A DNA stretch of 64,000 bases from Anaeromyxobacter sp. (GTDB lineage: Bacteria > Myxococcota > Myxococcia > Myxococcales > Anaeromyxobacteraceae): the NCBI GenBank assembly GCA_035627135.1, contig DASPMI010000193.1, forward strand, positions 1,708 to 65,707, in the 5' to 3' direction. The translations under genes and the position numbers were made by a program. The stretch's first letter is position 1. Each line of letters starts with the position of its first letter. Below the pieces are notes generated by a model that saw only the letters and a program-made list of their open reading frames with translations, made no database searches and was not told where the DNA came from. Positions 42,278-45,021 of the stretch are shown one piece after another.

Positions 42278-43915
42278 TCAGCGCGCAGGCCGCTCCGACG
42301 GCTCGATCCGCGCGCCCGGCATGCGCGGGTCGGGCCTGCGCGCCGCCTTCGCGAACCGCGCCGCGGCGGGGCGGGCGATCTCGAACCGGGTCTCGCGGTC
42401 GAGCACGACGATCTTGCCGATCTCCTCGCGCGTCACCTCCCCGCGCCGGCAGAGGAGCGGGAGGATCCAGCGCGGGTCGGCCTTCTTCTCGCGCCCGAGC
42501 GTGAGCCGGAACCAGACGCCGTCGGCGCGCTGGTGGGCCTTGAGCTTCCGCGGCGTGCGGGCCTCGCGGACGGGCACCTCGCGCGCGGCGCGCGCGGTCT
42601 CCGGCAGCTCCTCGGGCGCGGGGCGGAGCGCCCGCTCCCGCCGGACGAGGGCCGCGGCGACGAGCAGCGGCGCGCGCGCGTCGAGGAGGCGCCGCGCCAC
42701 GGCCAGCTCCTCCTCCGTCGCCTCGCCCGCGAGCCGCGCCACCTCCTCGCCCAGCCGCTCGTCGTCCACGGCGCGGATCTCCTCCGCGCTCGGGAGCGGC
42801 GCCCACTCCGCCTGGATCCGCGCGGCGCGCAGGAGCCGCTCCAGCCGGAACCGCTCCGCCGGCGCGGCGAGCAGCACCGCGAGCCCCTTGTTGCCGGCGC
42901 GCCCGGTGCGCCCGCTCCGGTGCTGGAGCGCCTCGGGATCGCGCGGCAGGTCGGCGTGGAGGACGAGCTCGATGCCCGGGAGGTCGAGCCCGCGCGCGGC
43001 GACGTCGGTCGCGACCAGCACGCGGGCGCGGCCGTCGCGGAGCGCCTTGAGCGCCCGCAGCCGCTCCGCCTGGCCGAGCTCGCCCGAGATCGCGACCGCC
43101 TCGAAGCCGCGCTCGGCGAGGCTCGCGCCGGTGTGGTGCGCCGCCTCGCGCGTCGCCCGGAACACGAGGGCGCTCCGCGGCTCGAGCCGCCGGAGCACGT
43201 TCACGACCGCGTGCTCGCGCTCGCGCTCCGCGACCACGTGTGCACGGAACGTGATGTCGCCGTGCGCCTCCTCGGGCGGCGTCGCGGCCACGCGGGCCGG
43301 CTCGCGCGTGTAGCGGCGGGCGAGCTCGAGGATGGGCCGGGGGAGGGTGGCCGAGAAGAGGACCGTGCGGCGCTCCTCGGGCGCCGCCGCGAGGATCGCC
43401 TCGAGCTCCTCGCGGAAACCCATGTCGAGCATCTCGTCGGCCTCGTCCAGCACCACGGCGGCGGCGGCCGAGAGATCGAGGTTCCGGCGGTCGAGGTGAT
43501 CGCGCAGCCGGCCCGGCGTTCCGACGACGACGTGCGCCCCGCCGGCGAGCTGCCGCGCCTCGCGCCGCGGATCCATGCCGCCCACGCAGGCGGCGACGCG
43601 GCCCCCGGCGTCGGCGAGGAGCCACGACAGCTCGCGGTGGACCTGGAGCGCCAGCTCGCGCGTGGGCGCGACGACGAGGCCGAGCGGCGGACCGGCCGCC
43701 GGAAACCCGGCCGCGTCGCCCAGGAGCGCCTCGGCGAGCACGAGCCCGAAGGCGACCGTCTTGCCCGAGCCGGTCCGGGAGGAGACGAGGAGATCCCGCC
43801 CGCGGACCTCGGGCGCGAGCACCGCCGCCTGGACCGGGGTGGGGGTGCCGTAGCCGCGCGCCGCGAGGGCGCTCTGGAGCGCCGGGTGGGCGCCGATCGT
43901 GGAGAAGTCGCTCAC
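42278..43915 (-). CDS. DEAD-box RNA helicase with DbpA-type RNA-binding domain
   Basis: TGSGKT, PTRELA, DEAD, SAT, HRSGRTGRAG. Confidence 0.95.
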   Translation of the reverse strand: MSDFSTIGAHPALQSALAARGYGTPTPVQAAVLAPEVRGRDLLVSSRTGSGKTVAFGLVLAEALLGDAAGFPAAGPPLGLVVAPTRELALQVHRELSWLLADAGGRVAACVGGMDPRREARQLAGGAHVVVGTPGRLRDHLDRRNLDLSAAAAVVLDEADEMLDMGFREELEAILAAAPEERRTVLFSATLPRPILELARRYTREPARVAATPPEEAHGDITFRAHVVAEREREHAVVNVLRRLEPRSALVFRATREAAHHTGASLAERGFEAVAISGELGQAERLRALKALRDGRARVLVATDVAARGLDLPGIELVLHADLPRDPEALQHRSGRTGRAGNKGLAVLLAAPAERFRLERLLRAARIQAEWAPLPSAEEIRAVDDERLGEEVARLAGEATEEELAVARRLLDARAPLLVAAALVRRERALRPAPEELPETARAAREVPVREARTPRKLKAHQRADGVWFRLTLGREKKADPRWILPLLCRRGEVTREEIGKIVVLDRETRFEIARPAAARFAKAARRPDPRMPGARIEPSERPAR

Positions 43916-43964
43916 CGGCGCAATCTACCGGAGAGCCCTCGGCCGCGGCTGTCGGACCCTCCTG

Positions 43965-43981
43965 CTATACGTCCGTTCAGG
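43965..43981 (+). promoter_or_regulatory. Myxobacterial-type LexA (SOS) box overlapping a -10 element
   Basis: CTATACGTCCGTTCAGG fits the M. xanthus consensus CTRHAMRYBYGTTCAGS (recalled) at all 17 positions. Confidence 0.75.
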
Positions 43982-43999
43982 TTCGACGGAGGTCTCACG

Positions 44000-44236
44000 A
44001 TGAACGCCATGGCACGTGCCTATGACAGCGACCCCGCCCTCGCGAAGCTCCACGAGCTGACCGAGCGGATCCGCCGCCGGGCGGCCGAGGCGCGGGAGCG
44101 GGCGATGGCCCGCGAGCGGCGGCTCTCGACCGCCCGCCCGCGGGAGCTCCAGCTCACGCTCCCCCTTCCGCGACCGGCCGGAGCTGGCGGCCGGAGCGGG
44201 CCCCGCAGCGGGCCCCGGCTGCTGCGTGCGGGATGA
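44000..44236 (+). CDS. 78-aa hypothetical protein with QLTLPL motif
   Basis: SD GGAGG at 43988-43992, ATG 44000, fills the gap between helicase and DUF72 genes. Confidence 0.75.
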   Translation: MNAMARAYDSDPALAKLHELTERIRRRAAEARERAMARERRLSTARPRELQLTLPLPRPAGAGGRSGPRSGPRLLRAG

Positions 44237-44274
44237 CCCTTCCAGGGAGTCCCTCCGAGCGGTGAGCGGCAGGG

Positions 44275-45021
44275 TCACGGCGCCGGCGCCGCGAGCGAGG
44301 GTCGCTCCTCTCCGAGCGCCGCGAGCAGGTCGATCGCGTCGTGGACCGCCGCGCCGCCGAGATCGTTGTTGAAGTAGACGAAGGCGTCGCGTCCGGGCCG
44401 CGCCCAGTCGAGGAGCTCCTCGGCGATCGCGCGGAGGTACGCGGGCCCGTACCGGCCGTGGTAGTGGCCGGTCGTGCCGTGGAAGCGGACGTACCGGAAG
44501 GCTCCCGTGAGCCGCGGCGGTCGCCGCTCGACCCGATCGTGCTCGCAGAACGCGGCGCCGTGCCGATCGAGCACTGCGCAGGTCTCCTCTGCGTACCAGG
44601 CCGGATCGCGGAACTCGACGGCGTGCCGGACGGGCGGAAGGCGCGAGAGGAAGTGGTCGAGCCGCTCGAGGTCGGGGGCGAACTGGGGCGGGAGCTGCCA
44701 GAGGACGGGGCCCAGGGTCGGGCCGAGGTGCCGGACCGGCCCGAAGAACCGTTCGAGCCCCTCGCCCGCGTCGCGCAGTCGCTTCAGGTGCGTCAGGTAG
44801 CGGGAACCCTTCACCGCGAACACGAAGCCGCGGGGCACCCCCGCGCGCCAGCGCTCCGCCGCGTCGGCGGTCGGCAGCCTGTAGAACGTCGCGTTGAGCT
44901 CGACCGTGTCGAAGAACTGCGTGTACCGCGCGAGCCATGCACGGACGGGGACCCCGGGCGGGTACAGAACGCCGCGCCAGTGCCGGTACTGATACCCGCT
45001 CGTCCCCACGCGGATGGCCAT
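44275..45021 (-). CDS. DUF72 family protein
   Basis: VGTSGY, TVELNATFYR, FAVKG, LWQLPP, YVRFHG, VYFNND. Confidence 0.94.
   Translation of the reverse strand: MAIRVGTSGYQYRHWRGVLYPPGVPVRAWLARYTQFFDTVELNATFYRLPTADAAERWRAGVPRGFVFAVKGSRYLTHLKRLRDAGEGLERFFGPVRHLGPTLGPVLWQLPPQFAPDLERLDHFLSRLPPVRHAVEFRDPAWYAEETCAVLDRHGAAFCEHDRVERRPPRLTGAFRYVRFHGTTGHYHGRYGPAYLRAIAEELLDWARPGRDAFVYFNNDLGGAAVHDAIDLLAALGEERPSLAAPAP

Follow-up and report, generated by a model that had tools for sequence, protein, structure and literature searches.

The locus described here raises a simple question: does a short open reading frame that lies just behind a LexA-like box, in the 64,000-nucleotide stretch of Anaeromyxobacter DNA that we analyzed (hereafter the window), encode a DNA damage-induced protein that binds the replication sliding clamp, DnaN? 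A preliminary description of the DNA had proposed that it does. The gene (P0001) runs from 44000 to 44236 on the plus strand, with its ATG at 44000 and its TGA at 44234-44236; its product is MNAMARAYDSDPALAKLHELTERIRRRAAEARERAMARERRLSTARPRELQLTLPLPRPAGAGGRSGPRSGPRLLRAG, 78 residues in translation. A Shine-Dalgarno sequence, GGAGG, occupies 43988-43992 of the same strand, 7 nt upstream of the ATG, and purine-rich, Shine-Dalgarno-like sequences are also found in relatives of the gene. Frame and Shine-Dalgarno sequence lie where the preliminary description had placed them, and the frame is indeed concealed, as it had said: it forms the in-frame 3' end of a 567-aa shadow ORF (42533-44236, plus strand) that is antisense to a DEAD-box helicase gene, and because it is the in-frame tail of such a long frame it is easily overlooked. 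The helicase, a DEAD-box RNA helicase with a DbpA C-terminal domain (42278-43915, minus strand; Pfam DEAD, Helicase_C and DbpA), is the divergent neighbor, and a DUF72 protein gene (44275-45021, minus strand; Pfam DUF72, E = 1.4e-68), which serves as a synteny marker for the locus, is the convergent one. Between these two the small gene is monocistronic, with no adjacent co-transcribed antitoxin or other partner.

The box, CTATACGTCCGTTCAGG (43965-43981, plus strand), agrees at 17 of 17 positions with CTRHAMRYBYGTTCAGS, the published SOS box of Myxococcus xanthus, whose LexA gel-shifts the boxes of lexA and recA2 (PMC9705874). The preliminary description had named the same consensus. None of 100 shuffles of the window contained a match to the 17-mer. 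When the whole assembly was scanned (5.12 Mb, 74% GC), the consensus had 2 perfect matches, and 5 sites had at most one mismatch. The organism's own lexA carries TATACCGATGTTCAG 24 nt before its start codon, and the core derived from that box, TAYAC-N4-GTTCAG, occurs at only six sites in the genome: before lexA, uvrA, three paralogs of an HNH-like gene, and the small gene. All six are intergenic and in the orientation box-then-gene, and by our estimate for DNA of 74% GC about 0.1 such sites would be expected by chance. In a weight matrix built from 10 sites scoring 25.1-30.9 bits, this box among them, the small-gene box scored 27.5 bits; the matrix also picked up a fourth HNH-like paralog, as well as a site of lower score upstream of recA. 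Judged by its letters, then, the sequence at 43965-43981 can be counted among a very few genuine LexA-type operators. Where complete genomes of the genus are without the small gene, the strict motif is essentially limited to lexA.

Two features of related promoters deserve mention. The region upstream of recA (contig C34) holds a degenerate box, GTATCCACCCGTTCAGG, of 16 bits. At lexA promoters of the genus (C129:19320-19366 in this genome, and L075, L077 and L080), an additional inverted half-site, CTGAAC, lies 10 nt upstream of TATAC-N4-GTTCAG and may be a second LexA contact; the small-gene operator has no such half-site.

The 5' half of the LexA box is a -10-like hexamer, TATACG (43966-43971, plus strand), preceded by TG at 43963-64 and a C. 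These are the letters of the extended -10 that had been claimed for the site; a sigma-70 consensus scan found no promoter at the locus, and in three box-bearing relatives the TG is not kept. Upstream lies the element TGTCGGACC (43950-43958, plus strand), for which relatives have TGTCAGAC or TTGACAGA. It always lies about 10 nt before TATAC, and it recurs at the same spacing in box-bearing relatives, in box-less relatives and in the HNH-like SOS genes; it may be a promoter element. The common module can be written as TGTCRGAC (or TTGACRGA), a spacer of about 10 nt, and TAnnCn; it spans 43950-43971 in the window and homologous positions in L049, L050, L053, L054, L057, L006, L019, L051 and L055, and its spacing is below that of a standard -35/-10 pair. 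In the box-less relatives, TAnnCT stands at the homologous position, 9 nt before the ATG. These loci appear to be leaderless (TGTCAGA-N10-TAnnCT-N9-ATG), and almost all of their proteins end in His.

A good operator does not by itself make the frame behind it a gene. The 78-aa ORF might be untranslated, either a chance open frame in DNA of 74% GC or part of a noncoding LexA-controlled RNA; spurious long ORFs are common in this genome, and this one is the tail of a 567-aa shadow frame. Against this, codon-level comparison of close pairs gave dN/dS values between 0.14 and 0.40 (0.26 for G000/G010, 0.35 for G000/G015, 0.14 for G008/L056 and 0.26 for L049/L054). Length, start codon and Shine-Dalgarno sequence are kept among relatives, and an invariant helix block is retained at about 40% overall identity. 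An Rfam search of 43700-44500 returned no family. A terminator scan of the locus found no terminator, and the predicted folding of the 3' region is not superior to that of shuffled sequence (z = 0.28). Because of the dN/dS values, a GC3 of 0.88, the existence of relatives, their calling as genes by independent gene callers in public assemblies, and the lack of an Rfam match, we conclude from this pattern of sequence evolution that the ORF is a translated gene, and we regard an untranslated ORF as very improbable.

The relatives define a narrow family. A first search found 7 and a profile search 33, and a search of 1.84 billion representatives found 15 clusters at 50% identity; altogether the family comprises about 50 relatives of 64-108 residues. 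All those that could be placed in a genome belong to one genus, in which 7 of 37 genomes carry the family, as do 0 of the 214 other genomes of the order. A search across Myxococcota had been suggested; homologs do exist, confined to part of this one genus. Because the family is absent from 30 of the 37 genus genomes, its function must be dispensable. No credible match came from Pfam, NCBIfam or the PDB, whether single sequences or the family profile served as query, in keeping with the earlier remark that the protein belongs to no recognized family, and a search of the literature turned up no account of this family or of a LexA-regulated small clamp binder. The microprotein family is thus previously undescribed and limited to Anaeromyxobacter-like bacteria. 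That it is encoded by a LexA-repressed gene is a prediction that we make with considerable confidence from the operator and the coding evidence.

Because the operator lies between two divergent genes, it might mainly control the DEAD-box helicase, with the small ORF as a passenger whose SOS control is incidental. The box is 50-66 nt upstream of the helicase start codon, a minus-strand -10-like sequence, TAGATT, occurs just before that start, and the helicase adjoins the small gene in its closest relatives. It does so solely in these, however. We compared the DNA upstream of the small gene at 20 distinct loci, a sample outside which the most divergent motif-bearing members (P0041, P0036, P0019 and P0025) fall. 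The box (TATAC-N4-GTTCAG) was present in 11: G000; G010, G015, L059 and L060, where it is identical to that of the window; and L049, L050, L053, L054, L057 and G018, where it is conserved, with the variant GTTCAT in G018. It lies 16-70 nt before the start codon in these loci, which reach down to about 37% protein identity and differ in their neighbors (an MFS transporter and a SIS gene; a transposase; an AraC-type regulator). The box thus follows the small gene into helicase-free loci (L049, L053, L054 and L057), and its orientation is that seen at lexA, uvrA and the HNH-like genes. Because box and small gene stay together while the neighborhood changes, we assign the operator to the small gene and consider primary control of the helicase improbable. 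The helicase may nevertheless share the operator in the clade of the window's protein, where bidirectional repression is possible as an addition only.

DUF72 proteins are predicted endonuclease IV-like DNA-binding TIM barrels. The DUF72 gene is convergent with the small gene in G010, G015, G018, G008, L051, L056 and the contig of P0015, and such convergence is seen in many relatives, with the LexA box present or absent. The pairing may be mere inherited gene order.

The second element of the proposal is the hexapeptide QLTLPL, which is encoded at 44150-44167 (plus strand), as had been stated, and forms residues 51-56 in the tail peptide RPRELQLTLPLPRPA. The pattern QL.L.L is expected about 0.003 times per 78-aa protein of this proteome. 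A protein with Q-x-x-L-x-L at residues ~49-57 is encoded at all 11 box-bearing loci, in the variants QLTLPL, QLTLEL, QLALQL, QLTLRL, QPMLPL, QAALPL, QRELPL, QSQLPL and QSELPL, and at none of the 9 box-less ones (G008, G034, G030, L051, L055, L056, L061, L062 and L065). When proteins without DNA context are included, the tree divides into a side where all 30 sequences have the motif and a side where none of 20 does. No substitution of Q, L4 or L6 occurs among the 30, while the neighboring columns hold 5-8 different residues, and the register is kept across a 2-residue indel (QLTLPL versus QLTLQL, QLTLEL and QLTLRL). Box and motif change once in the tree, on the same weakly supported branch. We therefore rejected the 11-versus-9 pattern as an independent association: a single event on one branch is not a statistical one. 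What the sequences do show is that box and motif have been retained jointly over about 37-45% identity and that, by this reading of the tree, one lineage lost both. The two clades, one with box, motif and in many members an -AA end, the other with none of these, provide a natural contrast for dissecting function.

Co-conservation of the box with QLxLPL had been suggested as a check on the proposal. It holds for the looser form Q-x-x-L-x-L; strict QLxLPL is limited to the clade of the window's protein, and elsewhere QSELPL, QRELPL, QAELPL and QPELPL are found. Most relatives have S, R, E, A, P or G at position 2, which is aliphatic solely in the window's clade. Also conserved in the family are E3, P5 and a downstream [RP][LM]xP, none of them needed for a fit to the clamp pocket, and the flanks of the motif are rich in Arg and Pro and strongly basic.

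The rest of the protein offers one other conserved element. AlphaFold2, run on the family alignment, predicts a single helix over residues 12-45 (44033-44134, plus strand; it begins DPALAKLHELTERIRRRAAEARERA), with a mean pLDDT of 93, 97 and 87 for residue blocks 11-20, 21-30 and 31-40. The remainder of the 78 residues is predicted to be disordered (pLDDT 43-59), including residues 51-56, which have a pLDDT of about 50 and no secondary structure. A basic helical segment had been described from the letters, and this prediction, together with the protein's pI of 11.8, bears it out. The helix defines the family: across 34 sequences P12, L14, L17, E19, R23, I24, R25, R27 and A29 are invariant. In the alignment, an invariant N-terminal block, DP(A/V)LxRLHEVxERIRRRAAE, is followed by a variable Arg/Pro-rich linker and, in many members, by an acidic C-terminal tail, PRHW(A/S)DG; the HW tail has been lost from the window's clade, which ends ...LLRAG. 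Hydrophobic residues recur in the modeled helix at a spacing of 3-4, so that we read it as amphipathic, and it could form a coiled coil. The protein contains no hydrophobic stretch of membrane-spanning length.

The C termini of relatives differ between the two sides of the tree. Of the 30 motif-bearing members, 13 end in -AA (KSAA, RQAA and SRAA), like ssrA-type degrons. Of the 20 members without the motif, 19 have a terminal His that follows an acidic tail, PRHW[AS]DG...DE. Neither ending occurs in the window's clade. The -AA ends hint at controlled turnover, which would fit either kind of partner considered below.

How well does QLTLPL fit a clamp-binding motif? Canonical motifs take a pentameric form, Q-phi-x-[L/M]-[F/L], or a hexameric one, Q-phi-x-[L/M]-x-[F/L]; they are generally located in disordered termini, their flanks are mostly acidic, as a tendency and not as a strict rule, acidic or neutral flanks being favorable to docking close to the basic rim of the pocket, and replacement of Leu by Ala at position 2 costs about 40-fold in affinity (PMC11139829). 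QLTLPL fits the hexameric form at every position and lies in a predicted accessible, disordered tail; its flanks are neither acidic nor neutral. The parallel with Hda that had been drawn is sound at the level of the peptide: the motif of Escherichia coli Hda is QLSLPL and that of Caulobacter HdaA is QFKLPL, both hexamers in a disordered terminus (PMC3836487). The clamp pocket of the organism is probably conventional, as judged from its own DinB, which carries a standard QLGLF. QLxLxL alone is weak evidence, because it also occurs at the C terminus of flagellin (QLALKLLGG, contig C30), a clear false positive; such matches led us to drop the pattern as a proteome-wide detector of clamp binders. 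That survey also drew attention to a 433-aa ORF of unknown family (C198:4689-5988, minus strand) that ends ...PAQLGLKLR, which could be a true clamp-binding motif.

In the model that we propose, LexA would bind the operator at 43965-43981, which shares sequence with the -10-like TATACG and is separated by 18 nt from the start codon. DNA damage would lead to RecA-stimulated cleavage of LexA, the promoter would be freed, and the protein would be made. We infer LexA binding and damage induction from the box and its conservation, both of which are observed. The Q-x-x-L-x-L of the tail (QLTLPL) would then dock into the hydrophobic pocket of DnaN, in competition with polymerases and other clients; this step we infer solely from the resemblance of the motif. 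Occupancy of DnaN would slow or reprogram replication during repair, and the helix of residues 12-45 would supply dimerization or a second contact. As a whole, this model of a damage-induced protein whose tail occupies the DnaN pocket is one that we hold tentatively and place somewhat below even chances.

The regulatory and coding evidence applies equally to a LexA-induced microprotein whose conserved Q-x-E-L-P-L-[RP]-[LM]-x-P binds a partner other than DnaN. Such a partner might be the divisome, with the protein acting as a cytoplasmic SOS division inhibitor, or RecA or another repair protein; alternatively, the peptide might serve as a protease adaptor or degron. The family consensus differs from the canonical clamp motif in its second residue, its conservation extends past position 6, and this residue pattern (position 2, E3, P5 and [RP][LM]xP) could suit another partner; the basic flanks point the same way. 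So do the -AA ends of 13 of the 30 motif-bearing members, which, if they are degrons, suggest controlled turnover as in checkpoint proteins. Many SOS regulons hold a small lineage-specific checkpoint protein. SulA, SidA, DidA, YneA, DivS, ChiZ and DinI are all short, lineage-restricted and damage-induced, and they bind a cellular machine without catalysis; their targets are FtsZ, FtsW/N and RecA, and several are membrane-anchored. On the other side, the 78-aa protein has no transmembrane segment like those of SidA, YneA and ChiZ, profile and sequence searches found no similarity to SulA or DinI, and no other known short motif matches the peptide, whereas the clamp motif matches it in three key positions. 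We give a non-DnaN partner, the main rival reading, a probability approaching, and not reaching, one half. Identity with a SulA-, DinI-, SidA- or YneA-type protein was rejected: neither a SulA or DinI fold or profile nor any other division-inhibitor family matched the 78-aa protein, and a transmembrane helix is absent. None of the small SOS checkpoint proteins listed above is known to have a clamp-binding motif.

Should the clamp model hold, the closest functional likeness, by analogy, would be to the SOS clamp clients Pol IV, Pol II and the UmuDC checkpoint, and to the clamp toxins SocB and its pneumococcal counterpart. In E. coli, Pol IV (DinB, QLVLGL), Pol II and UmuD/UmuC are LexA-repressed. 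They dock into the beta-clamp pocket by a penta- or hexapeptide that begins with Q (PMC11139829), and overproduced UmuDC slows replication (PMC4045847). These clients are enzymes or their subunits, with folded catalytic domains, whereas the 78-aa protein consists of a helix and a tail, with no polymerase or peptidase domain. The Anaeromyxobacter genome also differs from E. coli in that its DinB gene (C153:38799-39239) is without a strong LexA box, none above 14 bits being found, so that translesion polymerases appear, from the operator scan, to be excluded from the strong-operator SOS regulon. Caulobacter SocB and the toxin of a pneumococcal toxin-antitoxin system, both small, have a single known activity, the binding of DnaN with a block of replication elongation (PMC12795458). 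They share no sequence similarity with the 78-aa protein, and they belong to toxin-antitoxin pairs in which they are neutralized by a partner or by proteolysis, whereas the small gene has a LexA operator and no adjacent partner.

Two further clamp-binding proteins invite comparison. Hda is an AAA+ protein of about 230 aa that is not under SOS control, whereas the 78-aa protein has no AAA+ domain in Pfam or NCBIfam searches, so we rejected its membership of that family; a search of the genome for Hda gave DnaA-like matches only, below the Hda cut-off. Bacillus subtilis YabA, a small regulator of replication, has a coiled-coil helix at its N terminus and binds the clamp through its C-terminal part; its C-terminal domain binds zinc, and it binds DnaA and has no LexA regulation. 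We detected no similarity of the 78-aa protein to YabA.

A more elaborate model can be drawn, which we consider unlikely in its entirety. The proteins would be lineage-specific, SOS-induced clamp plugs or adaptors, in which a dimerizing helix presents two tails to the two pockets of the DnaN ring after DNA damage; the complex would pause the replisome, exclude clients or recruit a partner of the helix, and in many members an -AA degron would limit the lifetime of the protein. The sister clade would have lost operator, motif and -AA end together, and retained the helix and the PRHW[AS]DG tail, which would serve constitutively in a function that does not involve the clamp.

The SOS regulons of Myxococcota appear to be very small, and in this Anaeromyxobacter genome strong operators are found at lexA, uvrA, the repeated HNH-like gene and the small gene. 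A dedicated 78-aa effector within so small a regulon probably has a checkpoint-type function. Binding to DnaN, if it occurs, would make this effector the first LexA-controlled protein with clamp occupancy as its sole apparent activity, and a minimal natural clamp inhibitor that could inform both the control of replication stress and the design of peptide clamp inhibitors. The narrow distribution of the family limits its general importance. The most divergent motif-bearing relative, P0041 (QPELPL), is encoded on a metagenome contig divergently to a gene for an AlkB-like 2OG-Fe(II) oxygenase, a neighbor that hints at a DNA-damage context.

Finally, the HNH-like genes form a group of their own. 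The four paralogs, each of about 560 aa with a weak C-terminal HNH match (Pfam E = 0.0049), all have a strong LexA box, identified by weight matrix or core, at C50:7726-7742 (minus strand), C60:4176-4192 (minus), C201:22469-22485 (plus) and C163:4036-4052 (minus). The box directly abuts an apparently leaderless ATG in the paralogs of C50, C60 and C201. Similar promoter modules had prompted a comparison with the small protein; by eye, their N termini have no similarity to it, and we discarded that connection. They are reminiscent of the SOS-induced REP13E12/HNH repeat genes of mycobacteria. The promoter module of these paralogs is also present at a 499-aa gene in genome G020.
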